The translations under genes were made by a program, and so were the position numbers. This document shows positions 9,497 through 37,224 of a stretch of DNA of 64,000 nt, one piece after another (positions within the stretch are counted from its first letter, which is position 1; each line of letters starts with the position of its first letter). This DNA comes from Phoronis australis (Eukaryota; Animalia; Phoronida): NCBI GenBank assembly GCA_002633005.1, contig NMRA01000159.1:175633-239632 (forward strand), written 5' to 3'. A model generated the notes under the pieces. That model was not told the origin of the DNA and made no database searches. It saw nothing but the letters and a program-made list of their open reading frames with translations.

Positions 9497-9521
9497 TGAC
9501 GTCATCAATACGTTGACGTCA
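9497..9521. promoter_or_regulatory. Two perfect CRE palindromes (TGACGTCA) just upstream of the repeat-protein ATG
   Basis: TGACGTCA at 9497-9504 and 9514-9521, 17-41 bp 5' of the minus-strand start codon. Function is inferred only. Confidence 0.4.
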
Positions 9522-12267: not shown

Positions 12268-12405
12268 TTAAAGCGCCATGAGCACTACATGTACATCAAG
12301 CATACTATTTTAATTATAAATATTTTCACAAATGATTTTATTTTCATTTTAGGAAACAAGTTCACTGAAATTATTGTGAGGCGAGCTTCAACGAACATGT
12401 TACCC

Positions 12406-14023: not shown

Positions 14024-14114
14024 ATGGAAGCTTGGAGTAATAGACAAATTATCGGATTACTGGCTGTAATCGCCACGTATTGTGGAACAAACGGGGTTGC
14101 AAGTGTCATAACAG
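14024..14114 (+). CDS. Gene 1 exon 1, signal peptide
   Basis: MEAWSNRQIIGLLAVIATYCGTNGVASVIT, donor G|GTAAGA, phase 1 matches exon 2. Confidence 0.7.
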
Positions 14115-16431
14115 GTAAGAGACGAAGTCTAAACTTGACAACATTGTGACAAGGGTATACAGTGGTTATGATGACGCAGTCATTCTAAAACCTGTCGCGC
14201 GATTGAATATTAGATCTTCAGACGATACGTTTAATCGATCCTCTGGGGACTGAAACATGATTTGTATGAAAAATGGGCCTCGTTTCACACCTCAAGCTAA
14301 TATTGATTGTACTTTTACAAAAGAAGCCTACTACATGTATATGATACTGGGTCCAGGGGGTAGGGGCCGAGGGGTATGGTCCTCACCATCTGTTGGTTCA
14401 TTTGGTTGTTACTATAACTTTGGATTTGTGTGGCTGGTTGCATGTAACAATCCCAGATTGGGATTCAACTAAGGTCCCTAAATCTACTGCGTATTTTTGG
14501 ACTTGTGAAAACATCGATTGCCCTTTCTTGTATTGTTTTAGTTTCCTTATTAAGTCAACTTTTGACTTTAATACAAATCAAGAGTGAACTCTACCTTGAA
14601 TTGACAAAATTATCGAAAATAAGTAGGGATCTTTTCATGCAACACCCCCAATTTAAGGACCGGGTCCCTATTTATTTTCTTTGAACTCAGGGCTCAGTTT
14701 TTAGTTATATTATTAGAAAATGTCATTAATCAACAAGGAGTTCATAATAAAGATGGAATGATATAAAATATTGCATCTGTGAGTCCACAAAGACACAGAT
14801 ACGAAAAAAGATTTAGGGACTTTAGTTGAGTCCCTATTTGGGACTGTTTCATGCAACCGGCCACTGGTCTCCAAAGGAGTGATCGCCGACACACAACGCT
14901 GCAACAAAGTAAGTGTGCTTGGTTCAATAGTTAACGGTTTGAAGGATCCCTGTTATCATACACAGCTCGTGTAGGCTAAAGCGTAAGTTGAGGATTTTAG
15001 TGACATGTTAGTTACGCCAAGTGCGCCGTTTTGAACTGGTTGCGTTTTTCACGGCTCATAAGGAGAAAAGTATTACCCCCCCTACCCCTTGTAGAACCAT
15101 CAATCACAGACTCATTCTAGTGTTGAGCGGAAGATAGTAGTATTTTAAGGAGTGGAATCGATGATGCACCGATGCATTAATGAACATTACACTTGTGTAA
15201 AAATGTTGAATGACAGATAAGATATCCAAACACTGGTTACTATATCTACGTTTGACATGTTAGGTGGGGTAAAATTCGGTCAACCAGTCAAAACAATCGT
15301 GGGGAATTCGGACGAAACAAGAATTCGGGCCACACAGCACACACAAAAAATACGCGAAAAACAAGGCAGAAGCCACACCGGCGACAAAATGTGTAGAAAA
15401 TATATTTATAAGCAAGCATTGTTGGTTATTAGTACATGGCAAGCAACAGACTGCAGCCAAACTACGGTAAACGAGACGAGTTAAGATACAATAAGGTGTC
15501 AGTAATCCACGCAGAGTTGCAGTTAAAACTTTCAGTTACTCCAAAACCACCAGACACTTGTTGCAAGCAGTAGTAGTAGTGCGTTTATTTCGTATCGCAT
15601 AAACCACAAAATTAAAAATACAATATTGAATTGGGGAAGGCCTGGGAAGTACTTTTCCGCTAACCACAGGGCCACCCATATAGTAAACAAAGGATAATTA
15701 TAAACAAATAAGAGATGTACAGTGAATATGGCGAACAAATAAACAGACATGACAATGAAATTTTCACTCATGAACATATAAATATTATAAAAAGGTTAAA
15801 GAAGAATTAAATAAATAAGAGCAAATGATATATTATCGCAGCTGTATGACTAAATTCTTACGCAGAGTGGGAGATGGCAGGACCAAAATGCACGCGACAG
15901 CACTACCAGATAGCATAATAATGTCAAAGATGTCGATATATTTGGCCGAAGAAACGAAGTCTTCATTTGAATTTCATTGTTAGGAAAGCCTAATCTAAGA
16001 AACGTAAGACTCGATGATTTATTTTGGAAGTTTTGCGATCGAACGAGTCTTCAAACTTTTGATATTTGTAACCCTGAAAATCGTCACAGGTTACCACTAG
16101 GTTGCACCACGTTAACATGCGGAATTCATGAAAATCTCCAAGAAGAGTTTGAGAGGTCCCTTAACACCAAGTAACATTCGGTAACTCCCGGATGCCCAGG
16201 GTTTTAAATCGCCAAAATTTCCCTTTAAGAAAATGTCGCCACTCAACGTGCAAAATATCTGTAGAATAATTTAAAAAAATGAAAAAACTTGTGAGAAATT
16301 AATGCTTTCAGGAATTTTGATGCAGGCTGAAATTCAGAAAAAAGAAACAATACCATTCGAACCGAAACAGGAAGTTATGTTTCGGTGCATTTTAAGTAGA
16401 TTGGCAAATGTATACCACACACACGCACACG

Positions 16432-16463
<32 letters not shown>

Positions 16464-19400
16464 CACACACCAACCAGGTGATATAAACAGGTCGGTAGAC
16501 TGCCGTTATGGTGTGAAGCATACGGGAGAACTCTTACTACTCCATTACCGAGACTGGGGGCTTTGGGTCAGTGTCCCGTATAGCGACAGCGACTCACTTC
16601 ATTGACCGTAAAATGATAACCATATAGCGTAGTGGTGGCTTCTTGTAATTGTTCAGTTGATATTTATTGTGTTTGCGCTGAAAGCATAAAAATCGTGTAA
16701 TCGTCGTGATCTGAAATTTTATGAACTTCAGATCACTTCAAAACTGAGTAAGGAAAAAAACAAGACCAATTTTATACGAGTGGTCCATTTAACAATGTAA
16801 AGACAAAGGAGGACGTTTTTCAGTGTAGCGGTCGGCTCATCCTTATTGTAAATATTGCTCACGAATGTATAAACATTGAAATCATACGCGGGTTGGCTCA
16901 TGTAATAAACCAAAATCTAGCAACTAAAATAAAGATAAACACTGTCATCTTTCTCTAGGCTATTTGTTGTGTGTCTGTTTCAATCATACTATTTCGTGTT
17001 TTCTTTATCACTTTATATTCTCGTTTAACCTTTTCAGAATAGAATAAGGGAATGCGTACGCCTATTATCACAAAGAGGTCAATTCAAAATCGCGTGCCTG
17101 CTGTTTAAATAATCTGTATGACAAGGAAACGTTTCCCAACATTTTGGCAACAAAAGTCGCCACTTCCGTATGATACAGACTATAAGCTGTTAGCTATAGA
17201 TGCCATGTACTGATGAATACAGTATGTTTTCATTCCCAGGTGTCGAAGTAGAGGAAACTTATGCCAGCAGCAAAGACTTGTATCCTGAATCATTAGGTTA
17301 CGATGTAAGACTTGGGCGTGATGTCACAACGTTACGTCTCCGCCGGATGACGCGCCTGAGTACGAACTTGCCAGTGTACGTTTTTGAGAATGGTGCTCTC
17401 GTCCGGGTGGAGAAAGACCCAAAACAGGTACCAGTAAATTTATGATATATATTTGTTTCTGTCTAAAGTAAATAACAGCTTTGTAGAATAGTTTGAAAAT
17501 TCTTGGCGTAGACCACAGAATGTTTTCTCTGGCCAAACAACGTTAAAGCTGCAATGACAAAGGATGAATTACGTGATAAGGAATGAACTTCTGTTTCTAT
17601 GTTTTTCTTAATTGAATATGTCCTGCCTGTTATTAAGCAATAAGTGTTGGAAAAAATCTAGGTGTCAGCTCAGCTTGTATTGTCTAAGCACACACCTGGA
17701 CGTACTATTAAGAACAAGGGGCTGACCTAGGAAAACGAGTTGGTGGCGAGGTCATCGACCCCAATGCGCACCAGCAAAAATTGTTTACGTGTAATAGGAA
17801 ACGCTTTTACCAACACATGTTGACTTATATCTAGGGTGACAATTATTTATTGGGGACCATGGTCTCTACTGTACCCCTAAGATATCCATGACTGTCGCTA
17901 ATTACATCGTAAAAGGTTATTCTATGATTATGTTAACTTGTATAGTCACCAGAGGCTGTCTAGACCTGGCCAATAAATTTAGCTCGATTCCTTCCAGTAC
18001 ACAAACGCATAATTGTTAGAAAACTATCGAATTACATCGAGATTTGCAATGGCTGAAGCGCATGAAGTTCAAGGTGTAGGTGGAGAACTGCTGTCATGAT
18101 ATCGCTTTTGTGACATTGTAGAATTACGTCAGCTACCACGACGAGAGCCGCGGAGCATCAATAGTTGTGTCTGCGATCGAGAATAAGGAAGGAGTATGGG
18201 AGCGCACACTTGTAAGTACAATGAATGAATGGAAGATTATTTAAAGCTTCTATAAACCCATGTACTTTGCAGTTTTCATTTAGAGTACTTAAGTAGTTCC
18301 TGGTCACACTCTTTCACGTAATTGTTAGGGATTGCAGCAAAATATCTCACAGACCATATAGATTGCAAAACCCCTTCCGATAGCCGCTTTCTTCAAACAC
18401 CCCCACCCCCCGAGACAATTCCTGTAAGCCTTAATACTGGCCAAGCATACTGCCCCAATAAAAGGACAAAAACACACCAAAGATGGCGCACCTTCTCATT
18501 AGACCTACTCGACGTTGGTTACACATAAAGAAAAGAAAGTGGTCAGTGAAATATGCAAGCTGGATTAGCTCATTTTGACGCCACGTGAGTTACAGTGCTT
18601 TTAGCTTTCTCGTATTTGACGCAGCTGACTGAGCGCAGTAATCTAAGTCTGCGCCATGCCTATATCTACCGTCGGCCAACTGACTCCATAATATGGAAAG
18701 ACGAAATTGAACACCAGTTTTCGAATGTATGAAAGCTATACCCTGGATAGCAACAATCAAACCACACCGCTGCAGGTCACATTAATATTGTTTAACAACA
18801 ATCGAAGTTAACCAGTTTCATGCAACCCAGCCAAGTTTGTCTTTTATATTTTTTTTTGCTTTGCTTCAATGCAAACTTATTATAACTTGTGTATTTTACT
18901 CTGTGGTCAGGTACGTATTTGTTTGCGTGGCTGAATGTCTTATTATGACTCCTATTAGTGACCCAGGAATTAAAACTACAGTTTGTAGCTTGGGTCTAAG
19001 TTCAAGTGCCAGAATGGAAAATTCGTCTGCGTAAACCGTTTATCATCAGATAGTACTAAACTTGAACAGAAAGTCACAAAAGAGAGTGTAGTTAAAGGTC
19101 GTAGCTCAGACAGCGGGCACAAAATGAGAAGTGCAGGCTTAAACTTGATGATCCGGGCAGAAGAGGCACTTACTCCTCAAGACGACGTCCAAGGGCGTAA
19201 ATGCAGATGATGCGAAATGACACTAATGTGAACTCGGTGTTAATCAAAATGGCGGGAAAAAGCAGATTCATACTCTCAAAGCCAAAGAGAGACAACAAAT
19301 TACAGAAATGAAGTGGCAAATCTACAGAGAATAACCTTCGTGCTTCATCAAATGACATTTTAGAAAATAATTGTGAAAACGATGCAGTTAGTCTTAAAGT

Positions 19401-22400
19401 GTAGATGAAATTTTAAAATAGTGCTGTGAACGTGGTTCCATTCTTGTTAAGTCGGTTAAAAATACGACAATGACGACTTGTGGTTGACATTATCAAAGAT
19501 CGTTGAAGGGACATTAGCTTTATCTTTAGAACTGTTTTTACGTATTTTACTTTCAGAGAGGGACATTTTTAAGTAAAGGCCACCACGTCTCGATTTCTCA
19601 TCACGAAGATTTCACGTCAACGGATACACCAGGGACCTATCACGCTGAGATCATCACCTCGTACACGCCTTTAGACATGGCTGAGAAAGTAGCGCGTGGT
19701 TTTGACGAAACATTACTTCGTCGCTTGAAGCGTTCAGCGACAACTGATCAGCACTTTGTACAACTGTTACTCATGGTCGATTATTCACTTTACCAAAGGT
19801 TTGTGGAACTTAACAGATCGCCACGAAACGCTACACTATGAACGCATTCAAATGGTACCGAGTATTGTGAAAACACGGATCCACATGTAACGTGTATTCA
19901 TCCACCAAAATATCCCATCTTGTTGGACTGTGAAGTCAGAAATTCGATTTACTAGTATACCTTGCGCATTTCTGAAAAATGTTGTACCTGCGCACCTGAG
20001 AAATCTCGGATATTACGACTAGTGTAAGCAAATCTTCTGTGCTGTAATATTCCATTTCGGTATAACACAAAGCCCAATTCTGTGAAATTTGCCTACAAGG
20101 CTGCGCGTCGCGGGGTACGCCGCTTTAGTCCCCACAGTTGTACACAACTGTCGTGATGATCAGTATTTTTCATTAAAATAAATTTGTCATCGCCATTCTG
20201 ATGAGCTTAAAATTTTGTTGCTGCATAACAAGCTGCTATGCCCTAAAAACATGACCTTTTGAGCCGACTCCAAAGTATGTAAGCGGCCTTTTACTGTTGA
20301 GGCTCAACATTATATTACCGCACAGACAGGCCCTTTCATATTGACTTAACTCCGGTCTGAGGGGAGTGTCGACGTAAACAGCGCAGTTAACTGGATCGTT
20401 CATACTGGCTTCGGTAGTTAATGAACATCAAAATAAGCGGTTGCGTGCCGTTGTCGTCATCGAAGTTATCGCAAGGTAGCGTTGCACGCTAAGATTTTTT
20501 TCAATGTTTCAATTTGGAAATATTTACGTGTGCTAAGTGACATTAAACTTATTTTTAAATCGATTGGTTATTATTAGAGCAATATATAAGCAGCTATTAG
20601 TGACGGCACTACCTTGTAACTGTTGACGATAACAGTGACACCTGGCGATAACTTTTATTTGACCGGAGTTAAGCGTTCATACTGCACAGCAGCGTCGACG
20701 CAGCGGTCTTAAATCCACCTGTTAATTGGAGCTGTTAACTGCGATCCAGGCTGGAGTTAAGCGTTCATACTGACCGCAACTCCCCAAACCATCGACGCGT
20801 AGACGTTAGTATGAAAGGCTCTATAGACGTGTCGTGAATTGGGAAGTGTAATTATTTCACAGGTGACTATTACCGAAATTTGATACCAAAATTGTTTCAT
20901 GCAAAACGGCGTCTCGTTTAACTGAAGTAAGGCTTGGCGTACGATTCACCACTTTTGCCTTTTGTTGTTTTCTTTCCTGGTGCATGTGGAATTTTAACGC
21001 GGAATCAAACCCATGCTTTCTGTTGTGAACAATTTTTTCATAAAATCACAGGTTGTGTCGTGAATTGAACTGGACATTTCTTCTGAAGTCCTGGATTTAT
21101 CTCCCTTTTAGCTGAGGGAAAGTTTGCGGTCGAGCCTATGTGATTTCACTCAAAACTTGGTTTCTGACAGAAATCATGCGTTTAATCTACTGTAGGAAAT
21201 TCAACGAGGCTTGAACCCGGGTTGCACGAGCGACGGTCAAGCATGATCTAAACCATTCGGCCAAGAGGCAGTTGCCACTAGGCAAGCGGCTTAGAGAGGC
21301 TTTATCTGACTGTACATGTACGTGTCGTCACAACCGGAAGTCACGCTTCGCAACACTACTTCAATAAAATGTTCGGATTGTATTCTCTAAATTTGTGTTT
21401 TATCATAGTCATTACTATCGCGTAGTAATAGTATTATACTATTACTATTACTATAGTATCATTGATACTATAAATTTAATTGTCAAGTCAAGATTGCATA
21501 AAATTTCATAGAGTTCATTGAAATTTGCTTCTCTAATTTTCTTTTTGGTGCTGCGCAGCACTCTATTCCATTGTGCAGTGAGTACTATATAAGTGCTTGC
21601 AACAGAATATCTTTTAGCAAGGCCACGTGAAGTCGACATCTTTTTTCAACGTGAGGTCTGTTTCATAAAAAATGACTTGAAGACTTATTTTAGATTAGTA
21701 AAAAATCGTCTTACCACACAACTATATCTGAAAAATAACTCATCTCAACAAAAGAACATCGTCTCTGAAAATGCATACCTAACTCACTACTAGTTTCCCA
21801 CATAATTTTGTTGAACTCAAAGCTGTGATGTGCTAACAAAATACACGAAGAAAATTTTATTACGCAATTTTTAAGTGGGATTGTAAGCCAAAATAGTGAT
21901 TTTAGTCTTAAAGATGTATTTGCATGCTCCTAACTATGCTATTTGAAAATCATCAACACTAAACAAACTGCAGTTCTATTCATTGACAACTAAGAAAAAA
22001 AATCTGCAAATACGTGACCTTTGCACATAGCCTGCATCACGCAGTGATAATCACCAACAGCACGCCAAGATAATTACTGGCGGATCATTTAGACACAAAA
22101 ATCGTTCTTAAAACATTTGGCCATTTTCAACGTACACTGACAGCACAGCTTTGTATTGTTTGTCCAAGCAGTCACAAGGATAAGGAATTGGTGTGCAAGT
22201 TCCACTTTATGTCAGTTTTCCTGAAACAGATTAATGGATCACAGTGCAGGATAATCCCGATAACTAGTAGTGTAATGCGACTCTTGTAGGTTCTATAATC
22301 AAACAAATGGGTCCAGTCCGACGGAGAGGGAGAAGCAGACGATACCGATAATGGAGAGATATTACGCACAAGTGGCTAATGGGGTAAGATTAATAGTACG

Positions 22401-25400
22401 ACTGACCCAAGCGATGTAGCAACATTGGACAACGCAAGGATGTTACTGTTAAGGCAGTATGGGGCTTTTACGCAAGAAACAATACCCTTGTGTTTGTCAT
22501 TGCAGCACAATTACTGAACGGCGGCTTTCAAAAAAAAGACTTCCACGGAACTCTGCTTTATTCTCTTTCAAAGTTGAACAAACTTCTTGATAAAATCTTT
22601 AGCAGTTAATAGACGAGCCTTTGTTACATAAAATAGTGTTTTTGTCAGACTTCAATCGGAATTGAATGTAACACTAACTGTTTATGAGATTGCAAAGTGT
22701 TTCGATTTCGACGTAGTGCGTAGAGTGATACCTGCTGAGATTTTGCCGAGATGTGATGACCCGTTTTACTTGAGGCAAGTACGTTGTCTGTTCACTCACC
22801 TGAAACTGAGATTCGCATTGAAAGAGAGCGGTTCCTCCGTGCATTTCACAAGAATTCAAAGTTGCGAGTCTTTTGCCAATGGTCAACGGTTTAGCTTCAT
22901 TTGACAACTCCGACTTTTCTGTTGTAGATCAATCTCCGGTACAGGAATCTTAAAGAACAGTCACTGAAGATAGAGGTTGTGTTATCCGCTATTTATATTG
23001 CAAAGGTAACGAAGTGCAAACCAACATTACCCTGATTATTAATTAATTTAAGCTAACGAGTGACCGTGTTGATTTTGATGTTTTCTCAAACCAACTCTAA
23101 AGATGATTTCCTTTGTTTGGAGACATTCCACGGAGGTCTTTCCATTGTTCCATGCTGATTTCACTTCACGCTCGTTGTCTTTTGCACACTCTACTTAAGA
23201 CTTATACACATGTACCTAGCATAACGTTCATTGATACAACACTTGAGAACACTGGAATCAAAGCTTTACTCTGTCGTGAAGATTTTCATTCCGACTGGGT
23301 TTCGGAAGGTCTATATATCGCCATTGGCACACTCTTGCCAAAAATATGTGAAATATTCGGAAACTGGGACCATTTCACGATTAAGGTCGAAAATTTACTC
23401 ACACATGTGCAGAATCGTAATATCTGTCACTGAAAATGTTTAATAAACGTAAATTTCTCATTGCGTGTGTCTTGTAACGCAGCACAAGACCAGTCCAATG
23501 TCCAACTAACCATCTCGTTTTCCAGACGGCTGAGGAATCTTATTGGACGGAAAGTGCGGATGTGAAGAATGTCGTTGATGGCCAGACTGTCATCAACGCC
23601 ACTAGAGCCATGGAATACATACTTCAATGGAGCACAGACCCGAAAATTACAGCGTCTCTTCCTACTTTTGACCACGCCATGCTATTAACAGGGTAGGATC
23701 TTCTTGAAGTAAATTCTGAGACAAATACCGTACCGACATTCTACATTCTTACATAGTATTCAGCATAACGGGTTGCCAGAGCAAATTTAAGCATCACATT
23801 TATTACGGAGGGGTACAGCCACCAAAAGTAATTACGCCGTTGTAGTGCGAGTATTGTTAATGACTTGAAACGCTGGGGGATTTTTCAGGGTATGTGAAAA
23901 AGAGAAACTGTCCCCTCCACAAAAGCAGCTGAAAATAGCTATTAGTAGTTCGGCAAAAATTGTGAAAGGTCTGTTAATTATTAAAACAATTTGAATTAAC
24001 AATAATGCATAACGTTAATGAGTAAAGCTGTTCTGACCACCATTCTATAATCAGTCAACGATACGCAGACTAGCAGGCGTCGTGGACAGTTTTGGAAAGA
24101 CAAAGACGTTGCACATGTATGCGCAATGAACTGTGGGAAATGTGTAGTCAAAGCTATAAAAAGAGACGAGCGAAATGGTAACATAAATCGTGGATTTAAC
24201 TCTTCGAGAAACGACACGTTGCCGGGGAATGATGTACCCCACGAACCCTTAGTGGCGAATTAGTTCACTGCTTACCTTTTGCAGATACAACATATGGCGG
24301 GGCTACACGAACGGTAAAAAGAACACGGGAGTAGCCGGAAGCGCTGTCACGGGGGGAATGTGCACGAGCGAGAGTTACTCTATCAACGAAGACCCGGGAG
24401 CGTTCAAGACAATCGATACATGTACACACGAACTGGGCCACAGGTACGTCAAGTATCGTAAAAACTCATTTGTTTCAAACGAGTAGAATGCGTGTTTGGT
24501 GGAAGAGGAAGCCATTAAGCGTTGACGTCTCTTTACAACGTTCATTTTTAACAATGTCCGCCGGAGAGCTTCATGTCTGAGTAGTTCCGTAGTTTCAACA
24601 ATAAGTGAAATTGGTGGAAGGTAGGTTTTTACCAGGACGTGTGACTGTTGGAGTGGAGGCGTCTACACAGCTGTTTCAGCTGGGCGTCGGTAGAACGATG
24701 TTCGATTGGACGTCTTCACGGGGCTTGAGGTTAAGAGTTTCTAATTCCAAGCAGTGATCTGACGGCCTGTAGGTCGTTAACAAGATTTGTGACTATTATT
24801 GGAGCGGGTGTCGATAGAGGCCAACGATTTCAAAATTAGTAAAAAACATTCAGGATATCACATTCATAGCAGAATACTACAACGTTATTACCTCAGTTGT
24901 TTCGTCGAAAATACTCGGCGAAGTTATCAGAGTTTTGCTTTTAAAGGCTACAGAACAATAACTGCACGTGTACTGTGAGTCTCATGCTGAGCGTAAGGTA
25001 TGGGTTTCTATGGAAATAATATTCATAACGATGGTCTTGCGATTATTAATTATTACGAAGATCATGATCATGTCAGTGAAAACCATATCAATGGAAACAT
25101 GAACTAACTGCCACTGTCAAATTTTCCAGTCTTGGAGCTGTTCATGACGGGTCTGGTAACGGGTGTGACAGCAACGACCAGTATATCATGGCTGTTACTG
25201 AGTCGGCCACTGATATATCCACCTACAAGAATCGTTATTTATTCTCATCCTGCTCTGTCTCCAGCATGACAGCACTTATAAACAAGCTGAACAAGTAAGC
25301 TTTATCTGTTACGGTCACCAATATCGAACATTGGTACGCCAACCTCTGTCTCCATGCTGCCGGCAGTGGCGGATCTAGGATATCACAAGGGGGGGGGGCA

Positions 25401-28400
25401 ACATTTTCTCTGTAAACATTTGCTCAAAGCATGCGCATAGCACCGAATTGGGGGGGGAGGTCGGGAGGGGGGTTTGCCTCCTTCCCGCCCAGGCAATTTT
25501 TCTGTTTTTTTCATCTAAAAATCAAGCATTTTCCTTGATTCCTGAAGTATTATCCAAGAAAAAAGGCAAAAAAGCGGAGAAAGTGTCAAACAGGAAAAAC
25601 TGCAAGCGCCACAGACTCGAACTCACGACCTAGCGGATGGAGCGAGCGTGCTTTACCACTGCACCACAAAGATTTAACTCCTTAGTTGATACTAAGAGAC
25701 CTACTTGTTTATGGTCCACAGCTTTTGCGCGCGAAACCTTCTTTTTGTAATGCTTATTACATGTTTTATATTTTGTGCAATCATTTATATTTTGTGCAAT
25801 CAGTTCGTAACAAATTTGTTGTATTTAATATAGTCTTCAATTGCCCAAAAGACCAAATCCTTTTTGTGTTGGCAATAATGACGCGATTGCTTTGGAAATC
25901 GTCTTAAGTTAAGGTTTGACAAAGAGAGAATTATTAGTTTCTGAGTGATTCACTAAGGCTTCGATTAATATTGACATCTTACCAGCAGCTTCTGTTTTTT
26001 CATCATCACTCAGATTCCATTTTCTTTAAAAAATGAAGTAATTTTCTTCATTGCACAGTGGAGCAGACGACGGAAACGGAGTCGTAGTGCCCAGCGCCAC
26101 TGCCGGTCGCCTGAGATATCGCGGGAGAGCCGACACCTAGCCATAGTTCCGTTACGATTGCGCCGTGTTCCGAATTTGACACTTGAAATTGGATCTGAGC
26201 CTCCCCCCGCCCCCCAACACTAAAACTGCACACATTTAAATCTTGTTACAGCCGTATAATTTTAATTACCGGGGTTAATTAATAAACTCAACATTTCCCT
26301 ACGCTCTTGCTGTTATATTTTTTTGCGGCAGCCAAGGATGAGGGGCCCTGCCCCCCTAAATCCGTCTATGGCCGGAGATAAAGCAACCCACGGTAACTCT
26401 TATAAGTTAAATGCATTACGAGTACTGTTTAGTAGTATGATGATTACCATGGGACGCCTTGTTTCTCACTGTGGGGCGTTTCGAATGTTTTGATTTAGTA
26501 TGGCGATAGTGAATATTGAGTCGTGAAATAAGACTAGACGGTCAGCCCTTGTTATTTTCGGTGATAATACTGAGCTTGTATTAGGTGTTATACACGACGC
26601 AATTCGTCAACGTCGCATATCACATCTGACGCAGCCAAGTCAAGTTATTTTTTGAAATTCATACTGGTACGGGAATTGGGGATAGTTAGGCCTATAAAAG
26701 ATCTTTAACCCAGCCGCAGAGCGTCTAAAGCCGCGCACCGTACCAGTGACTGCTGGCAACTCACCGGGACTCAACTTTAACATCTTTCGCCGCAGAGATA
26801 ACAACTCTTGGGCTGTCTCCGGTGAGTCCATTCTTTGTTGAATGATGTTTAGATAAAAAACTTTAAGTTGGACATATTTGATCTGATGAATCAGAGCTCA
26901 ACAAAACTTGGTTCAATTCGGACCACCAGCAGCAAAGAAACTTGTTTTTACTGGCATGTCGAGATAAAAAGGATTGTCATAGCAGTTTCATTTTAAAACA
27001 ACAGCCAATGGCCACTGTCAACTGTTTTTCAGTGAAAACAAGAATTGTATGCTGAACAGCGCCACAAATTTGAATAACGAAACTTACTTCCAATACCTTA
27101 CGTCCGTTATGCCAGGACAGATGCTCTCTGTGCACGAGCAGTGTAGAAACATGTATGGCTCTGAGTCGTACTATTGTGGGGTAAGTTTAGAAGAAAGGCA
27201 ACTGGATCTTAGGTCTAAAGAGAACGTGGCTACCTTCACAACCTAGGTGTATTTCTATGCAAGAGAAATTTTCCTTTTAGACATGTTCTTCCCTTCACCC
27301 CATCGCATGAGAAAAACTCCTCCAAAATCGGAGTAGCAGAAGTTTCATTTTCAAGACGGTGAAATCATAGTGGACAACACATTGATTTCTATTTTTCCGG
27401 CATGTTACTCCGACGCTACTACTGGAAAGGTTAAATAAAGCATGCCTTTAGTTAACTACTTCTCATATTATCAAGAAGCATACAAACCAAACTAGACATA
27501 CCGCTCACAATATTCAACCCTACATGTCAACAAAATGGCGGATGAAAAGGTAATTTGAAACATTGACATAATTTTCTTTTGTATTTTGTGTTGAAAAAAG
27601 TACCGTTTATATGCTTTTGGAAGTTAAACAGTTGACAACATTTGGATAATACAGTTGTCCATTTATTGGGAAAATGAACCAAAATGACAATTCACAAGAC
27701 ATTAATTTATCGCATTTGAGCATACTTTTCAAAATTTGTAACTTGATAAATTTTGAGACAGATGATTTTTTCTATCATCAAGCATACTGGATTTCTTTTT
27801 TGAATTTGGTTTGACTTTAGACACTATTTGCCGATTTTTTTCAATCTCATTTTAGACAATGTAACCTTCCGTTTGATGTGTTTTTCAGAGAATGTAACTG
27901 TATAACAAATTTCACACACACTCGCACTCGCACTCGCACACACACACGTGCGCACCCACACACATTCATGCAGTCCGAAAAATCAGTTTTTCAACAAGCT
28001 CAACTTTGACGTATCGGAAGAAGGACCGACGAAATAGCCAATAGGTGATAATCTGTATCATGACGCTGGAAGCCGCAACATATTATCGCTCCACCAATTC
28101 TTCGCCATGACACAGGTCGTCATGTATTGGCTATTTCCCTTTTTCGAAAGTATGACGACACGTCAAAGATTTTGAACTCAAGATTAATTTCCGGCGTTGT
28201 CATTTGCTCAGGGTACGACACAGGAAAAGGTTTTGTGCAGAGAGATGCAGTGTTATAATCCGAAAACAAAAGCATGCGAACAGTACTCCGGCCTCAGAGC
28301 TGCACGCGGGACTACATGCGGCGATAGAAAGGTAAATATGTTCTCTGACTCCATTCTGGACCTGCTTCACAAAAATGGAAGCTTTGCGACGTTTTTACAG

Positions 28401-31400
28401 AGTCTAAACTAAACATATATCTTACAACTAGCAATGACTTAGGGTGCAAACTTCCGTATAGATTGTATCCAACACGTCATAAAGTCAACTTACGGTACTT
28501 TTAAATTAGTGAAATAAGCCACGGAAGTAGTTCTACAACTGTATTTTAATCACGCGCACAGAAATCAAATTCGACAGCTTCCAGAATTTTCATATCACCA
28601 GAGAACCGGTTGCTTGGAGTTGAGATTGCTATACAGTACACCCACTGAAACACTTCGTAACAATTTTAAAATTGCCACGTTATGTTGAAGAGAAAACAGA
28701 GTATTTCGCTACATCTCTACTGATAATTTAAAAATTACGAAATGTGCAGTAAACCCGCATCTTCTATCAAAACTGATTTGGGCCACGACTCTAAAAATTT
28801 CCTCAATTGGTTCTTTTTTGTTAAAAAATGATTTGAAGTTTTGAGAAGATCAAGCTTGTCTTTATTGCTTCAGACTCAGAGCATTACGATTTCCTGTCAC
28901 GGCGGGACAGTGTCAAATGCCACAACAATTTAGCCGTAACGAAAATTCCAGCGGCCATTTTATTGCAAAAAACTCTAATTCGAACAAAGAAAAAATGTCA
29001 TGGCGTCAATTTAGAATAACAAATGTGCCTGCGAAAAATGTTATTTTGGGCACCCGGTTATGAGTGCGTATTTTTACTTTTCGCTAAGTGCCAGTTGTAG
29101 TTATGTCAATGTACATGTATGTTTTGGCAACTGTTTCGGTGTTCCTCAGTAACTTTCGATTATGTGTCCTTATTTTTACTGTTCGCTAAGTGCCAGTTGG
29201 CGTTATGCCAACTCACGTGCATGTTTTGGTATCTGTTTCGGTGTTCCTCGGCAACTTCCGCTTTTACCTTTCAGTGGTGTATTGAGGGAGACTGTGTATG
29301 CGGATACGATGCACCCAGAGCTCCTGGTAGGTGGCATTGCTTCCTTTTTGCGTTAGAACCTATTCATTTATCAAGGCGTTCCATCGAAATTGGAACCCCG
29401 ATGTAAAACAGATATCCCAGAGTCGGAAACAGACTCCCGTACCTTCAGCTAACCAGCCCGAAAAAAATTAAAATGAACCCCGACCTTTAAAACAGGAACC
29501 CTGGAGATCGGGCAGGAAACACGGCATCGAAATACCACTCCCGCACTTTCTGTTAAGATTGCTTATCTCAAGAAAATAATACTTTAGTACGTTTAAAGTT
29601 CTTTGTGTTCATACGACCTATACCAAATTTACATTTTTATGAAAAAACAAATTTTTGCTATTTTACATAGTTGTGCTATGTTGTTTTACTATATGATAAG
29701 TTTAGACAACTTGTGACCGATTGGCGTTCTACCGTTATTCTGCTGCTAAAGTTGTGGTGCGATCTATTGCGTCGGCTTTCGGCACCATAAACTTTTTCGT
29801 CACCTATTGGGCAGTTTCTTTTTCCCCAATTCTTCAATCAGCTGTTCTTCTTCCACGAGGTTGCATACATGTAACAACAAATTATCGGAACTGGTTTCAT
29901 TTTTTACAAGCTTTTAGTGTTTTAATACCAACGAACCAAATTTCGGAGCAGTGATCCGCCAAAAAGAGTGTGACTGCGTTGAGTTCAGAATTATTCCGAT
30001 TCCAAATTCCGTTTTAATGATCAATGAGGAGTTGAAGGGCAAGAACGGTGAAATTGGAGACGGTGCAAGTCTTTTGAGTCGATTTCAGAATCCCTTGAAT
30101 TGCATACCTACTTCTGACATTCTTTAAAGTTAAAATTTAATTAAAATTGAACTATCATTGGTTCCAACGTGTGCAGTCTTGTCATTTACAAACCTCCAAA
30201 AATTTAATTAACGTTTCAATGAGGATAGAGAAGAAGAGATTATTCTTGACTTACAGAATACTAGAAGTATATATTGACATATCACCAAGATGGCTGCAAA
30301 GAGACAGGATAAGTCACGTGAGAACAGTCCTTTCCAACAGCATGTGGAACTTCAGTTCCAATAAACTTGGAAGTATACGGTGACTGCTGAAGGAGACTGC
30401 CTGATGTTTGCTCCTGACTTACCGTCATCGATAGAAAGCATGTACTAAATCTATTGATAGAGATGTAAATTTTAAAGCTATCCTGATACAGTCGCCATAG
30501 AAGCATACTTTTAATGGATATTTTCATTTTTAGCCACATGTACACACGGTGACTACCCAGCGAAGATATACTCCAACCAAAACTATAAGTGTCAGGACGC
30601 TGCTAAAGATCCGTCTCTGTGTTACCAAGAATACTTCAGGGACAAATGTTGCAAGTCGTGTCCCGAACAGTACGACGCATGCGCTTTGGAAGGTAAAGCC
30701 TGAAGACCTGGGTCGAGTTCAGTAACGCTAGTATCTTGCTAGATAACAAAAGTCTCGCGAGATTTTGCGAGATATCGCTGAGTGTTTTCAATGGAAACGC
30801 ATGGCTTTATCTAGATTTTCTTGACGCTATTGAGCTCAACCTGGTTACAGTAATGCATGTCCCAGCGTTGCCTTGAGTGCGCTCATGCCTTGTGTTCGAA
30901 AAGAATTTTCCACGACAGGCCTTCTTTTGAAATAAAAACCATGCTCTGACCGCGTCTATGAATGAATAAAATAGTCAATTACAGCCAATGGTTTGCCAAA
31001 AGTTGTTTATTCAAATCAAATCAGCTGCTGGGTTATCGTGTAAAAGCGACCATCATTTATTTTCCAGACTGTCGTTATGGCAATCTCAACCCAACATGTT
31101 CTACTTATAAATATGCAAACGTATGTCCTGACTCCTCAAACTGGGCAGCGTGCTGCAAGCTTTGTGAGACGGACATTGTTGCAAGTCGTGGTCTCGACAT
31201 GGCTGCCATCACCGCTTGCCGCAACCAGACCAAAGTAGTCGATGACAGTTATGAATGCGAAAACATAACTACTACCATTCCGCCGTCAACCACTACAGGA
31301 CCGTCAACTACACAGCTGGTACGCAATTGATTTAAACGGTTGTCTTTTACTATTTCTGAAATTTCATTGGGAATGTTTTTGTTGGTACACGGACGCAATT

Positions 31401-34400
31401 TATTTATTTGCTCATTAGTATTTAATAGAACCATTTATACTGATAGAATTTTTCCATATATCCGGGCGTAACCACATTTCCTCAACGTTATTTAGGAGAT
31501 TTTAAACCCTTTTGCTTACCATATTGGCCGTGGCCATGGACATTTGTGCGGAACTACGTTTCTATGGGATGCTTAGGCGCATGCACCAATATGAGAAACA
31601 CTTGGGTAAAAAAGGCGCCACAAAGGCACAACAATACACTAATATGTTGTTTATGAAAAACAAGTCAAATTTTGTAAAAGAAAATGAGTGTTCCCATAAT
31701 GCGAATTAATGTATGGGCCTATGCTTGGTACATTACCTGTGTTTAACTGGGAAACATAGACGCATGCGCCAATATGCTAACCACTTGGGTAAAAAAATGT
31801 CGCGGAAAAGGTATTTAGAATACGGCCCACGGATCTAAGGCGCGATAGTGGCTTTAATTGTGGTTGCACGACTGATTACAGTCAGTACCAAACAATACAA
31901 TGTCGGAACTCGTCATTTTAACTGAGCAGTCATGTTTCAGCCCACCACTAAAGTCCCCACGACGACCACAGCGCCTCCTACAACAACCACTGCACCTCCG
32001 TCGACAACAACAACAACAACAAGTGCTACGACGACACGCCCTCTGACAACAACAACAACAGCGCCCGAGACAACTCTGGCGTTATTACCTACAGCCACTC
32101 CGTATGACGGCACGTTGTTTTACACGAGAACCAGTGTACGTTGGGATGTTATAAACAACCAGGCTGCAACGTTTACGCAAGAATTGAAAGACTCAACTAG
32201 CACTCAATACAAACAAATGGAGACTGAAGTTTGTGCTCTGGTAAAGGCAGGCTTTGGCAGCTCACAGCCCATAAAAACTTGCAGCGCCAAGGGTTTTCGT
32301 TCTGGAAGCATCGTGTCTGATCTTGACCTGGGGTTTTCTGGTACGTCATCATTACTATAGAGTGCGTAGAGTTAGTTATTCGCGAGTTTGGCGAGATCGC
32401 GCCTTACCACGCAAAATCAGAGAGCGAAATGGAAATGTTTCCCCGAGTAAGCTCGTGCCCTTATAACAAAGACAAGCGAAATGGCCACCACTGAAGTGAT
32501 TGGACTGCGAGACAAGAATGTTGAATTATGGGAATAGACTCAATATGTCCATGATTTCCGGTGCGAGTGTCTCGCGAGTGTATTAATTACGTAACGTTCC
32601 TCTAATCAGGCTTGCACTTCACATGCTAAGTAATCGTGACCTATTCAAACAAGATGCGAAGAATAAATGATGTGCTATTGCTGGACGCGCATAAAACCTC
32701 AAGGGATTATTGCGCTTTTTAGAACTTTGCAAAATGTTACCCATGTCTGCATGCAATCAAGATAATAATGGAAAATTTGCAAACTTAGATTAAATCAAGC
32801 TCCATGGACATGCCTGTTTTTTTAAACTTCTGGTAATTAACAGCGGCGGATCAACGAGTTCGCGGATGAGAAGTTTACTCCCCCTGGCGGTGTCATCTTG
32901 TGCTGGGGATTTTTAAAGCTTCTTGAAGGGATTAAACTTGAACCTCCGGTCCCAGACACAGGGATAAGATAGATGACATGTCCCTAAAGATATGCAATGG
33001 CATTTATACACACAGTTCTGCACTCGCTCACTTTTTTGTTCATGTTCTGAATTTGTGTAACATTGCATTGCAGAGTCGGTGTCCCCTTCGACCGTGGAAT
33101 CTGCCATGAAGCAACCCTCCTTCTTTCCAAAAGGTTCAACTGCAACTACGCTTAGTGTCAGTAAGTTGACGTGATTGCTGGAATCTTGAGGCCTGTTTCA
33201 CGATTTAAGACTTAAGACAAGAATTTGGTCTTGCGTTCCCATTTCACAATTGCCGAAGAAGACTTAGCCAAGCAATAATGAGCGCATCACAGTCTACGAA
33301 TAATTTATGAACATTTTCCCTAGTAACCGCGTCATTTGTAAGTGTATTCTGAGACACTGCACCACATCTTTATCAGTGCTGTAGTCAGTGGTGATATAAG
33401 AGGTACAAGTAGGCTTCCAAAGACCACCGTATCACCTTGAGCACTGAACGGAAGTTACAATGCGTAGGCGCCACGTTCAAATGTCAAAAGGTGGTTGGCT
33501 GCGCCCACGTGCGCCTACGCTCCAATACAGCACTGATCGTTATGTGGAGTGTAATACCAAACTTCAGTCACTTTTCACGAGACAGACTCCTGGTGACTAG
33601 CTCTTCGTAACTGAGATTGTAACTCACCGATGTTCCTTTTGTTTCTGAGTGAATTCACCCACCATATCTACCCCTACAAGTGTTGTGTCAGCAGTATTAG
33701 GTAGAGAATCTAACCTGTGATTTGTTAGGTCCTTTTGAGGTCACAAGCAGCCTGATAGAATACCGAGCCAAATGACTAGTAGCCAGCAGGGAAGAGATAG
33801 CGCCCATCTTCATTTTGCTTGTATTTCCTTACCTCTAACTACCTTCATTAGCCGTCTGTGCACTCCTTAGTTGGTGGACGGCTTCTTTGGTTCAATAGAA
33901 CTCTACGTTCTATCGATGGTTCGATGTTTCTATGACAGTTTGTATGAGAGAAGTCGTTTTACACGGGAAAAACGGGAAAAATAATTTCCCCTAAACATTC
34001 AGAATATTAGGACAATATGGATTTTAGGGGAAATCGGCTGGCGAATAGTTTGATACTTTTAAAGTTGCTGAAGATTCATCTGCTAGACGTCATTTTCGAC
34101 CTCCTGCAATTTGCATTATTAGCAAACAACTTTCAATTTCCAGTCGTCTCGTGATAGAAAGTTCAACTATATTACATTAATTTTGACTTTTAGTGCGTAT
34201 TTAGTGTGCGAAATGTTTACCGTCAAACTCCAGTGTAGCATGAAACAAAACTTTATCAAATTGATTTTTGTTTTCCACCCAAAGCTGTTTGACACGATTT
34301 GAATTCAGTACAAGGCACGAATTATTTCTTAGCTGCGTTAAACGGAGCAGCGTATTGTTTGTCAAGAGTGATTCGACTCGTTCCCTTGAATACTCAACAG

Positions 34401-36741
34401 GGTACATACATGTAAGTTGGCGTGTACATTGAAAATGTATATATTTTTCACTAATACGTGTTTTAATAAATCAATTAAAAATCACAATCGGATATGGAAT
34501 TGAGCGTCAACTGTGTCCTTACATCCTTATAATCAACCCGAATATTTCAAACCTCTCCATGGGGACTTGGCGATAAACTGCAGAATTTTTAAGTAGGAAG
34601 GTATTCGAGAACAGGTCGTAGGCCCTATATTTATGCTATCGGTGCATGGATATCGCGGGGATAGTTTTGCTGTGGAATATTTCGGATGATACTTAACTCT
34701 TTAAACCGCGACAGTCAGCTAATGTAATTCTGGGCTCGGTCTCTAATCTTTGTACTCGAAACGAACTCGAAACTAATTTTGGCAATTTCTCTGCTCCTGT
34801 TGTGCGAACTTAAGATAATTGGTTATCAGTCTGTGCTCGAATACATTATAGTTTATGCATAGGAGTTTCTAGTTCAAGTTTGCCCTTGAAAACCTTTATA
34901 TTTGTGCTACAAACTTGAGTAAAATTTCGAAATTTCGAGTTCAAACTCGAACTTATTGCTTTAATATTGGGTTTACAAACTGTGAACTAAGGGCAATAAA
35001 TTATCTACGTAATCTATTGTGTACTCGAGCATAGAATAATAGACACATATCTTGAGTTCGCCCAAAAGTAGAGTAGAAAATGCCAAACCTAATTTCGAGT
35101 TCCATTTCGAGTAAAAGATTGGAGACCGGGCCCAGAGACACATTGCGAGCATGATGATGATTGTGGTGATGATAAAGGTGATTAATATTTATTATTTCAA
35201 TGGCGTAAATGGTAATCGAATTTCAGGTGACGTGAATGAATGCAGTGACAAAGCAACCAACGATTGTTCGGCATATTCGGCTTGCAATAATACTGGTGGC
35301 GGATACACCTGCACATGCTTGACCGGATATGACGACACGTCTATTGGCAATGACAAAGGACGAAGGTAATCTGAAAATGTTTCATACCCAATTTAGTCGT
35401 AAACTGATTTAGCATTTAATTTTCTAAAGAGGCATTTGAATTCCAATAAAATTATGATGTTTTCTCATTTTCATTTCTTATTTATTTGAACAAGTATGAT
35501 ACTCGTGTTGATACTGAGTCTAATGGTAGCCGGTATGATGTATTTGTTACAGGTGCTCGTTGCCATGCAACACTACCAGCTGTTCCGGATCAACTTCCGG
35601 AATTTGCCGCCCTAGTTTTGATGGTCCTTATGGTTGTCTGTGCAACCCTGGTTTTTCGTGAGTGTCACACAAACATAAATGTGAAAATTAATCGTTGTTG
35701 CAATTTAACTGTTGTGCCGGACGACCAGGAATGCCTGGAAGGTTATACATGCTACGTTTTCCAATCTGTGAACATGTGCAGTGAGGGCATTTGTCCTAAC
35801 ATGGTATATAAATCGTGCAATACGGTAGTTCTGCACGTGGTATATACCGCGTGCATTACGGTAGTCCTGCGTTCACCTGGAAACGTCTTCTCATAATAGT
35901 ATACTTCGTATAATAACATGGGCACTCGATGCAATTCCCTATTGTATTGTCATACCAAACACAGATTTGACGTATTAGGATTTAGGACAGCTACTAGGTC
36001 AGTTTGTAGTGATTTGCCTATTCTTAGTGTGGAACAGGTTTTAAAAAACTCTTTGTCTATTACGAGACATTCAAAGTTAATTTGACAAGTGTGGGTAACG
36101 AATCTGGATAGGAATTGAAGTGTTTTAGCTGAATACGACAACCAATCATGGTTATGTTTTTTAGAAATGAACCTATTGTGCAATTAAATTGTTACTGGGT
36201 CACCAAAAGGTGCTTTAATGTCGGTTACATGCGACTTGAGGAGAATTGAGGGCGCTCCCTGATGGTGATTTTCATTGCTCCTTTCAGAGGTGTACACTGC
36301 GAGTCCAACCTGAATGCACCAAAGGAGATGGAGTTCTGGCGAATTATTATCATCGCCGTGGCTATGGGCTTACTGGCCATATATCTCGCCATAGCTATAC
36401 CGTACATGATATACCAAATGCATAAATACCGTAACACAGATACGAGCGACGCCTACAGGCGAGCTCTTCAGCGACAAGATTCAAAGTCTACGTCAAGCAC
36501 AGTCGTCGGGAGGCGTTCACGGTCCAAACACAGTGACTCACGAAATCCCAGCCAATATATCCCGAGCCAATACATTCCACGATTGAACAGAGATGGTCCT
36601 TCAAAGCCTGATACTAGCAGGACTGCACGCGCCAACGCTGGCTTCGTCATGGATGCGTCGTCCGACCAAAGGTTGCAAATTCCGAGACCGGAAGTCAGGT
36701 CTTCTGCTGATAGAAGCACACTAACTGGATTTTCTATATGA
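14024..36741 (+). CDS. Membrane-anchored ADAMTS-like (M12B reprolysin) zinc metalloprotease with PLAC-like, mucin, SEA, EGF and TM domains; gene 1, 19 coding exons, about 1,062 aa
   Basis: GT-AG exons with compatible phases: 14024-14114, 17240-17427, 18122-18211, 19557-19798, 22290-22383, 22928-23005, 23526-23692, 24285-24443, 25130-25294, 27033-27180, 28212-28331, 29275-29326, 30534-30692, 31068-31318, 31941-32340, 33074-33160, 35227-35365, 35553-35657, 36288-36741 (total 3,189 nt, open). Motifs: RRLKR furin site, FDHAMLLTG, HELGHSLGAVHD, Met-turn YIMA, GTTCG..KWCIEGDC. Confidence 0.9.
14431..14863. mobile_element. Palindromic MITE (possibly PIF/Harbinger-like)
   Basis: About 55-bp imperfect TIRs: TGGCTGGTTGCATGTAACAATCCC...GTCCCTAAATCT versus AGATTTAGGGAC...GGGACTGTTTCATGCAACCGGCCA. 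Confidence 0.7.
16416..16470. repeat. (CA)n microsatellite
   Basis: Directly visible imperfect CA run. Confidence 0.95.
17240..17427 (+). CDS. Gene 1 exon 2, prodomain
   Basis: VEVEETYASSKDLYPESLGYDVRLGRDVTTLRLRR...PVYVFENG; 188 nt, same length as paralogous exon 40565-40752. Confidence 0.85.
18122..18211 (+). CDS. Gene 1 exon 3, prodomain
   Basis: NYVSYHDESRGASIVVSAIENKEGVWERTL; homologous to 41365-41454. Confidence 0.85.
19557..19798 (+). CDS. Gene 1 exon 4, furin site and start of catalytic domain
   Basis: RGTFLSKG...LLRRLKR|SATTDQHFVQLLLMVDYSLYQR. Confidence 0.9.
20328..20822. mobile_element. MITE with internal GTTCATACTG repeats
   Basis: Termini AGGCCCTTTCATATTGAC / GTTAGTATGAAAGGCTCT are imperfect inverted repeats; GTTCATACTG recurs three times internally. 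Confidence 0.6.
21205..21268 (-). mobile_element. tRNA-derived SINE head remnant or tRNA pseudogene
   Basis: Minus strand reads TGGCCGAATGG (A box) ... GGTTCAAGCC (B box); no acceptor stem can be formed. Confidence 0.45.
22290..22383 (+). CDS. Gene 1 exon 5, catalytic domain
   Basis: FYNQTNGSSPTEREKQTIPIMERYYAQVANG; homologous to 44651-44747. Confidence 0.9.
22928..23005 (+). CDS. Gene 1 exon 6, catalytic domain
   Basis: INLRYRNLKEQSLKIEVVLSAIYIAK; near-identical peptide at 46410-46487. Confidence 0.9.
23526..23692 (+). CDS. Gene 1 exon 7, catalytic domain
   Basis: TAEESYWTES...TASLPTFDHAMLLTG (reprolysin D-x-A-x-L-L-T motif). Confidence 0.92.
24285..24443 (+). CDS. Gene 1 exon 8, first half of zinc-binding motif
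   Basis: YNIWRG...VAGSAVTGGMCTSESYSINEDPGAFKTIDTCTHELGHS. Confidence 0.95.
25130..25294 (+). CDS. Gene 1 exon 9, third His and Met-turn
   Basis: LGAVHDGSGNGCDSNDQYIMA...FSSCS. Confidence 0.95.
25364..26370 (+). mobile_element. MITE, CAGTGGCGGA-terminus family, copy 3 (complete, 5-bp TSD)
   Basis: CAGTGGCGGATCTAGG...CCTAAATCCGTCTATG flanked by GCCGG on both sides; inverted copy of 2243-3086. Confidence 0.85.
27033..27180 (+). CDS. Gene 1 exon 10, end of catalytic and start of disintegrin-like domain
   Basis: ENKNCMLN...MPGQMLSVHEQCRNMYGSESYYCG (ADAMTS PGxxYxxxxQC pattern). Confidence 0.92.
28212..28331 (+). CDS. Gene 1 exon 11, disintegrin-like domain
   Basis: GTTQEKVLCREMQCYNPKTKACEQYSGLRAARGTTCGDRK. 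Confidence 0.92.
29071..29258. repeat. About 102-bp tandem duplication just upstream of the exon 12 acceptor
   Basis: TTCGCTAAGTGCCAGTTG...CTGTTTCGGTGTTCCTC occurs twice. Confidence 0.75.
29275..29326 (+). CDS. Gene 1 exon 12
   Basis: WCIEGDCVCGYDAPRAP; homologous to 60922-60973. Confidence 0.9.
30534..30692 (+). CDS. Gene 1 exon 13, PLAC-like six-Cys module 1
   Basis: TCTHGD...KCQDAAKDPSLCYQEYFRDKCCKSC; the CCxSC end fits a PLAC-type pattern. Confidence 0.88.
30708..30844. mobile_element. Short palindromic MITE
   Basis: GGGTCGAGTTCAGTAACG versus CGCTATTGAGCTCAACC inverted ends; the GTTCAGTA..CGCTAG motif is shared with 53962-54117. Confidence 0.45.
31068..31318 (+). CDS. Gene 1 exon 14, PLAC-like module 2 and start of stalk
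   Basis: DCRYGNLNPTC...VC...CCKLC...ITTTIPPSTTTGPSTTQL. Confidence 0.88.
31941..32340 (+). CDS. Gene 1 exon 15, Thr/Pro mucin stalk and SEA domain
   Basis: PTTKVPTTTTAPP... then FTQELKDSTSTQYKQMETEVC...GFRSGSIVSDLDLGF (SEA signature). Confidence 0.9.
33074..33160 (+). CDS. Gene 1 exon 16, end of SEA domain
   Basis: SVSPSTVESAMKQPSFFPKGSTATTLSV; CAG acceptor, A|GTAAGT donor, phase 1-1. Confidence 0.7.
34732..35133. mobile_element. Long-TIR palindromic MITE
   Basis: GGGCTCGGTCTCTAATCTTTGTACTCGAAACGAACTCGAAA... mirrors ...TTTCGAGTTCCATTTCGAGTAAAAGATTGGAGACCGGGCCC over roughly 100 bp. Confidence 0.8.
35227..35365 (+). CDS. Gene 1 exon 17, calcium-binding EGF
   Basis: DVNECSDKATNDCSAYSACNNTGGGYTCTCLTGY (D-x-N-E-C and C-x-N-x4-Y-x-C consensus). 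Confidence 0.92.
35553..35657 (+). CDS. Gene 1 exon 18, second EGF
   Basis: CSLPCNTTSCSGSTSGICRPSFDGPYGCLCNPGF, completed by SGVHCE across the next junction. Confidence 0.88.
36288..36741 (+). CDS. Gene 1 exon 19, transmembrane helix and cytoplasmic tail
   Basis: TM IIIIAVAMGLLAIYLAIAIPYMIY (36343-36414), then HKYR stop-transfer and a tail of about 108 aa ending TGFSI*. Confidence 0.9.
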
Positions 36742-37224
36742 CCTTGACTGTTCGAGAATTTTAGGTTGCACATTAGTAACCCATTTGAGTGCGTTCTTAA
36801 TGGACATGTCATTAATACTAATACGTCGTCTGTGATGTTTTTCTCCGCCCTACACACACAGAGTTTATTTACATGTCTTAGAACGAAATTTGATTGGTAA
36901 TACTTTATTGTGTAACAGAAGACAAGTGCAATTTTAGAACTAAAATGAAGATTGGCCTCTTTACATGTGCGAAGTTTGAAGTCGGCGCAGTCGCATTGGA
37001 CAAGAAATTTAACACGGAAAATAACCACATTGTATTTATGAAAAAGCGCTGGCTTTGTCTGAGGCCAGCAATAATTGTGGCCGGACGAGATTTGACTATT
37101 TGGGAATTCCGTATAGCAGTGCCCACTATGTCTGATTAACCAAGATATTCAGCTACCTCTGTTTACTATTCTAGTGATTTATGTGTAACTGCGTATGACG
37201 AAACCTGATTAGATCTCAGGAGTT

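Follow-up and report, generated by a model that had tools for sequence, protein, structure and literature searches.

Can an ADAMTS-type metalloprotease, a kind of enzyme that normally floats free, be carried on the cell surface by the stem of a transmembrane mucin? The question is raised by a stretch of 64,000 nucleotides from Phoronis australis (contig NMRA01000159.1, positions 175,633 to 239,632; hereafter the window), whose intron-rich DNA has a GC content of about 40% and contains, on the forward strand (+), a 19-exon gene at 14024-36741. This gene is transcribed and is spliced into one frame that extends from a protease domain to a transmembrane helix. Its product is probably an active cell-surface protease of the MIG-17/ADAMTS type, mounted on a mucin stalk, a SEA domain, two EGF domains and a transmembrane helix; self-cleavage of the SEA domain is predicted to make it releasable. 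Two proteins of Lingula anatina, XP_023932197.1 (P0008) and XP_013409946.1 (P0011), share this domain order from signal peptide to tail. In reviews of the M12B clan, the ADAMs form the anchored branch and the ADAMTSs the secreted one (PMC4885070); the window gene and its Lingula relatives represent ADAMTS-type heads that are anchored by another route, namely a transmembrane-mucin stem. In these proteins, an otherwise free matrix-cutting enzyme is probably tethered to the cell surface, from which pulling on the stalk may free it.

All 18 introns of the gene model have GT-AG ends and are consistent in phase, and the joined coding sequence (3,189 nt, 1,062 aa) has its last codon as its sole stop. 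The encoded order is a signal-like N-terminus, prodomain, catalytic domain, ADAMTS disintegrin-like domain, two six-cysteine modules, stalk, SEA, EGF_CA, EGF, transmembrane helix and cytoplasmic tail. RNA from the same species, comprising three raw-read runs of one study (X1, X2 and X3) and an older contig set from 2015 (X4), was mapped on positions 17150-37100. Among the joints listed, all 10 predicted between exons 9 and 19 appear in each of the three raw-read runs, with 2-33 reads apiece and in one orientation. The counts in X1/X2/X3 are 11/3/2 for joint 9-10, 5/10/7 for 10-11, 11/12/5 for 11-12, 10/7/7 for 12-13, 16/12/2 for 13-14, 16/20/7 for 14-15, 33/10/11 for 15-16, 9/5/3 for 16-17, 8/10/4 for 17-18 and 17/8/11 for 18-19. 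Counts therefore stay level across the boundary between head and stalk (joints 13-14 and 14-15), and the region of exons 2-9 has read depth in the same orientation. X4 yielded no joints. These data place the protease exons, from the third zinc ligand onward, and the anchor exons up to the transmembrane helix on one splice path, as the original prediction had held, in the form of a splice chain assembled from short reads rather than a single full-length molecule.

Finer mapping across introns 13 and 14 shows RNA depth on exons 13-15 and, within these introns, on two short repeat-like patches alone. A short secreted isoform was considered for reads in intron 13 at 30717/30733 (3/8/28) and rejected. 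These reads span just ~30710-30743; they run into foreign sequence at either end, depth falls to zero outside this patch, and they thus come from another locus.

Protease head and mucin-type stem

Exon 1 (14024-14114) supplies the start codon and a signal-peptide-like N-terminus (aa 1-30). The prodomain occupies exons 2 (17240-17427) and 3 (18122-18211), both of which have RNA depth and are homologous to a tandem paralog in the window and to the Lingula proteins, and it ends in exon 4 (19557-19798) with the furin-type site RLKR (aa 179-182; 19722-19733), after which the catalytic domain begins. An RxKR site is found in the same place in the paralog and in both Lingula proteins. The prodomain lacks cysteine, which means that it has no cysteine switch. 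Homology assigns the N-terminal part of the M12B catalytic domain to exons 5 (22290-22383), 6 (22928-23005) and 7 (23526-23692). Exons 8 (24285-24443) and 9 (25130-25294) then provide the zinc motif HExxHxxGxxH, which is split by an intron and is intact at aa 365-375, including the catalytic glutamate, and the Met-turn residue Met390, which lies 15 residues past the third histidine. A Met-turn is expected 12-24 residues after the zinc motif in the M12B description consulted (PMC4885070).

Pfam was run exon by exon with 14 queries, 9 of which matched the expected family. Exons 8 and 9 both match Reprolysin below the cut-off, which the whole Lingula homologues P0008 and P0011 pass. Exons 10 (27033-27180), 11 (28212-28331) and 12 (29275-29326) carry the ADAMTS disintegrin-like/cysteine-rich domain (aa ~452-522) and are connected by RNA joints; ADAMTS_CR_2 (PF17771) is matched by exons 10 and 11 with E values of 1e-5 to 3e-5. 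No Pfam match was obtained for exons 2, 4, 7 and 14, and exon 19 gave unrelated weak matches only. The ADAM disintegrin and ADAM_CR families are absent from P0008 and P0011 at E 0.5 and from the 14 exon queries of the window.

In a PDB sequence search with the head of the Lingula homologue, ADAMTS13/1/5/4 are best (E 2e-14 to 6e-6) and ADAM8 has an E value of 9e-5. The model of the P0008 head (pLDDT 76.4) has ADAMTS5/1/4 as its best folds (E 5e-17 to 3e-14); snake-venom and ADAM domains rank lower. In the Atlas, the top match of the Lingula head is a MIG-17 cluster (0.94, 200/256 features). Judged from its sequence, the head is a TSP1-less zinc protease of the MIG-17/ADAMTS type, with complete catalytic residues and predicted activity.

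The head is followed by two six-cysteine modules. The first (aa 534-574) is encoded by exon 13 (30534-30692; phase 1-1), which has RNA support and scores 16.9 bits against Pfam PLAC (cut-off 26.4, E 0.01). The second (aa 586-617) lies in exon 14 (31068-31318), an exon with RNA support and no PLAC match, which also encodes a two-cysteine linker and the start of the Thr/Pro stalk. A profile built from the repeat of the family itself recognises both modules (iE 6e-4), and we refer to them as PLAC-like. The TSP1 motif WxxWxxC occurs 0 times in the window protein, compared with 3 in the control P0018, and TSP_1 has no Pfam match in P0008 or P0011. The absence of TSP1 repeats, which was predicted at the outset, is thus confirmed, but it is not itself distinctive because TSP1-less MIG-17 is known, as its domain layout shows (PMC4856095). 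It is the tail that is new.

This tail begins with a Thr/Pro stalk at aa 651-722, which is short for a mucin-type stem at 72 aa and consists of 56% Ser+Thr and 18% Pro. Exon 15 (31941-32340) encodes the remainder of the stalk and the first part of the SEA domain, including a hairpin Gly-Ser site (32304-32309), and exon 16 (33074-33160) encodes the C-terminal part of SEA. Both exons have RNA and homology support. Two overlapping queries from exon 15 match SEA (E 0.001-0.005) below the cut-off because exons 15-17 each encode a portion of it. A calcium-binding EGF domain in exon 17 (35227-35365; EGF_CA, E 1.3e-9) precedes a second EGF in exon 18 (35553-35657; weak Pfam EGF match). Exon 19 (36288-36741) holds the end of this EGF, the transmembrane helix (36343-36411), a 109-aa Ser/Arg-rich cytoplasmic tail and the stop codon. 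RNA supports all three of these exons. The helix, at aa ~931-953 (KD19 2.96), is the one hydrophobic helix in the window protein. The Lingula proteins lack its PDZ-type ending at the C-terminus. Taken together, the intact zinc motif, the ADAMTS_CR_2 match, the SEA homology and the transmembrane helix on the spliced path bear out the proposal of a membrane-anchored ADAMTS-type protease on a mucin-SEA-EGF-EGF stem.

The SEA domain covers 110 residues (aa ~725-832), with a predicted cut between Gly790 and Ser791. Its counterpart in P0011 passes the Pfam cut-off (29.5 vs 26.4). A model of the P0011 tail (pLDDT 71.6) has the SEA order of strands and helices, and its Gly-Ser falls in the turn that connects strands 2 and 3. 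The top six VIA matches of the P0011 SEA domain are all SEA-bearing entries (Z 9.2-11.1, root-mean-square deviation 2.5-2.7 over 95-112 residues) and include TMPRSS6 (top), MUC16 and GPR126. Foldseek with the same tail finds MUC16 SEA and EGF arrays, and the Atlas matches of the tail are SEA-mucin clusters (0.90-0.91; Mucin-13, 0.90). Among the Atlas matches listed, no row combines Reprolysin with SEA; the queries were protein parts and the clusters were large ones only.

The stem, with its Thr/Pro stalk, SEA domain, two EGFs and transmembrane helix, resembles MUC13-type mucins. MUC13 and other SEA-type mucins (MUC3/17, HEG1-like) share with it a Thr/Pro stalk, a SEA domain with hairpin Gly-Ser, EGFs, transmembrane helix and tail; the window protein differs in its protease head and short stalk. 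Type II transmembrane serine proteases also hold a surface protease over SEA, but in the opposite topology, and meprin beta holds one over EGF and a transmembrane helix. In both cases, the catalytic domain is unrelated or distant. The suggested likeness extended to MUC3/12/17, and here it needs correction: two EGFs flank SEA in MUC17 as it is depicted (PMC13643018), whereas both follow SEA in the window protein.

The closest known counterparts of the head are C. elegans MIG-17, whose layout is given as SS-Pro-MP-DI-PLAC (PMC4856095), and Drosophila Sona, which has been described as most similar to MIG-17 (PMC4989167). As presented in these reports, both share with the window protein a signal peptide, prodomain, M12B domain, ADAMTS disintegrin-like domain and PLAC(-like) module, and neither has TSP1. 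However, secretion is the fate of MIG-17 and Sona, in which nothing follows the cysteine-rich part, whereas the window protein adds a stalk, SEA, two EGFs, a transmembrane helix and a tail. Furthermore, MIG-17 removes its prodomain autocatalytically, whereas the window protein has a furin-type site. For the catalytic and disintegrin-like domains of the Lingula homologue, vertebrate ADAMTS1/4/5/13 are the best PDB matches in both sequence and fold. The canonical ADAMTS layout, as outlined in PMC4349717, includes TSP1 and a spacer; the window protein lacks both and is membrane-anchored. ADAM sheddases are likewise type I M12B proteases with EGF, transmembrane helix and tail, but the Lingula homologues lack the two ADAM-specific domains, and the window protein has a stalk, SEA and a cysteine-free prodomain. 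From this domain composition, the protein would work like a tethered MIG-17 and is neither a canonical ADAMTS nor an ADAM.

The original prediction attributed the gene to exon shuffling. This origin is unproven because exons 13 and 16 are the only phase 1-1 exons, the EGF exons are not cassettes of this kind, and the junction between head and stalk lies within exon 14. In addition, the tail is homologous to that of Lingula, which dates the fusion to before a deep split.

Relatives and age of the fusion

Word-index searches with single exons gave 2 and 62 candidates, none of which passed, and this outcome carries little weight. A two-row HMMER profile of exon 13 was then run against 1.84 billion representatives and returned 9 matches, 8 of which contain the module (Helobdella, Gigantopelta and Lingula are among those named). 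The remaining match, P0009, was discarded as a bacterial-type protein with no relation to the family. Also among the matches is P0008, which is labelled 'mucin-5AC' and agrees with the window protein in domain order end to end, with a much longer stalk of 675 aa. P0011, labelled 'uncharacterized', also ends in stalk-SEA-EGF-EGF and a transmembrane helix; its PLAC-like modules number four, and between protease head and SEA stem it contains two near-identical repeats with CAP domains, which indicates that the stem bears several extracellular tools. A study of P0008 or P0011 was not found. The window head is 43% identical to that of P0008 and 41% to that of P0011, and the corresponding values for the tail are 31% (E 7e-26) and 35% (E 7e-30). 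The SEA domain alone scores 112 against P0008 and 95 against P0011, values reached by 0 of 1,000 shuffles. The three cytoplasmic tails can be aligned only poorly with one another.

A search with the P0008 head, limited to proteins of 928-2,956 aa, retained 9 proteins from 5,061 candidates. Two of these (P0008 itself and P0011) have the complete stem, one (P0013) has another transmembrane segment, and six have none, one of them a nematode ADAMTS that contains TSP1 repeats. P0013, from JGI, joins the same head to 17 CCxxC modules and an unrelated juxtamembrane region and helix. Its anchor is a possible second, independent membrane anchoring in the family, which suggests that tethering arose more than once. 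P0012, P0014-P0016 and P0001, which lack a transmembrane segment, contain 6-12 tandem six-cysteine modules that are mostly missed by Pfam and that constitute a family-specific PLAC-like repeat.

The tandem paralog lies downstream at 40565-61935 (+). Its exons 2-13 are intact and have the same intron phases, encoding 560 aa that are 48% identical to the window protein, with an intact zinc motif. Its exon 1 was not found within the window, and it ends at a phase-1 donor, so that the gene continues beyond the window. Short frames at ~52093-53388 (-) inside one of its introns resemble fragments of LINE-type reverse transcriptase.

In an unrooted tree of catalytic and disintegrin-like domains (9 rows, with neither MIG-17 nor Sona among them), the two window paralogs pair at 100/99, and a 99/99 branch sets them and the two Lingula proteins apart from the other rows. 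An earlier 11-row tree broke up the tailed group because of the long branches of a rotifer and a nematode row (5.1 and 6.4), both of which were left out of the 9-row tree. Path lengths from the window to Lingula exceed 2 changes per column. Because these paths are long, and because the homologous tails place the fusion before a deep split, the joining of protease head and mucin stem looks old.

The original prediction knew of no characterised protein with this architecture. Regarding the literature, this stands: a full-text search for reprolysin, SEA domain, transmembrane and EGF returned 0 papers, and no description was found in full texts, although subscription papers lay outside the search and one may exist. 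The main text of the Lingula genome paper contains neither 'ADAM' nor 'protease' (PMC4595640). However, the two Lingula proteins were already in RefSeq, unrecognised, and names such as 'mucin-5AC' hide proteins of this kind. We therefore regard this as an expressed, conserved domain architecture made from known parts that is apparently undescribed. An idea that the Lingula proteins belong to the shell was rejected, since neither accession occurs in the supplement of a 2026 Lingula shell proteome (0 matches, compared with 22 for a control accession; PMC13425148).

Possible modes of action

If the surface-protease reading is right, the signal peptide and single transmembrane helix would give a single-pass protein of type I topology. 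A furin-type convertase would remove the cysteine-free prodomain at RLKR. O-glycosylation would stiffen the 72-aa stalk and raise the head off the membrane, where it would cut surface-coat proteins (mucus, cuticle or matrix) beside the cell, with the PLAC-like modules perhaps assisting in substrate binding. The SEA domain would self-cleave as that of MUC1 does, yielding two chains without a covalent link, which could be parted by force or shedding. According to the passages on MUC1-type SEA domains in PMC13643018 and PMC10556640, cleavage leaves two chains that force can separate. All three tailed proteins retain G-S-I (GSIVS in the window protein, GSIIA in Lingula) but the ends of the motif differ from the consensus, and for this reason we lean by a small degree toward predicted self-cleavage at Gly790-Ser791. 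If it occurs, the protein would be a natural metalloprotease on a force-sensitive mucin joint. It is tempting to go further, and tentatively to propose an old lophotrochozoan subfamily in which SEA serves as a mechanical release catch for a glycocalyx enzyme that is freed into mucus by shear or binding. Were this true, a mucin breakaway joint would govern where a matrix protease acts.

Several points weigh against this picture. The SEA motifs depart from the full G-S[V/I]VV consensus as it is stated in PMC13643018. Cysteines 766 and 782 are conserved, and both are N-terminal of the predicted cut. The best SEA folds include TMPRSS6 and MUC16, so the fold match does not show cleavage. Both fold models were built on Lingula homologues rather than on the window protein, and these homologues are themselves predicted models. 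The RNA joints cover exons 9-19, and exon 1 lies outside the mapped stretch, so that the signal peptide is read from the DNA. Finally, a basal role is possible since MIG-17 acts at basement membranes.

This last point leads to the best surviving alternative, which we nevertheless consider unlikely: the protein might be a MIG-17 equivalent tethered basally on cells that migrate or grow, where it would remodel basement membrane with an uncleaved SEA as a mere spacer. The MIG-17 layout of the head, as reported (PMC4856095), the site at which MIG-17 works and the imperfect SEA motif fit such a role. However, stems of the stalk-SEA-EGF type are most like those of apical mucins, the P0008 stalk seems excessive for a basal tether, and the hairpin has conserved G-S-I.

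Rather more doubtful is an ectoenzyme with a digestive or defensive role in the epithelium of the gut or feeding organ, where its targets would be proteins of food or microbes instead of the animal's own coat. Tandem duplication and the varied accessory domains of the family, such as the two CAP domains of P0011, are consistent with this role, for which the membrane-bound gut proteases meprin beta and enteropeptidase are precedents. Its topology would be the same as that of the glycocalyx protease we favor, however, and the substrate would be the sole difference.

It seems improbable that the protein is an ADAM-like sheddase or signalling receptor, which would cut its own EGFs or membrane proteins nearby, or signal through its tail upon loss of the ectodomain. 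Type I proteins with EGF, transmembrane helix and tail are found among the ADAMs, as surveyed in PMC4885070, and intramembrane cleavage has been reported for MUC1 in the account given in PMC10556640. Yet the stalk keeps the active site away from juxtamembrane cut sites, the cytoplasmic tails are poorly alignable, and the head is ADAMTS-type rather than ADAM-type. Least credible by far is a secreted protease gene and an adjacent membrane mucin gene that were wrongly joined or are joined by rare read-through, which would suit the 6 of 9 family members whose lack of a transmembrane segment makes secreted forms the norm, but which conflicts with the level joint counts, the absence of read-through in introns 13 and 14 save for two short patches with loose ends on both sides, the single exon that encodes both the second PLAC-like module and the beginning of the stalk, and the same fusion at two Lingula loci.

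Other features of the window

A dispersed repeat of 700-900 bp is present in three copies that are 75-83% alike (2243-3041, 12405-13121 and 25470-26371). The last of these, in intron 9, and another repeat at ~34732-35135 attract many RNA reads in both orientations. On the opposite strand, positions 5602-9501 (-) contain a stop-free frame of 1,299 aa that is acidic and has long internal repeats. It ends in a basic-aromatic segment with two adjacent cysteines, which could be a membrane or lipidation signal.

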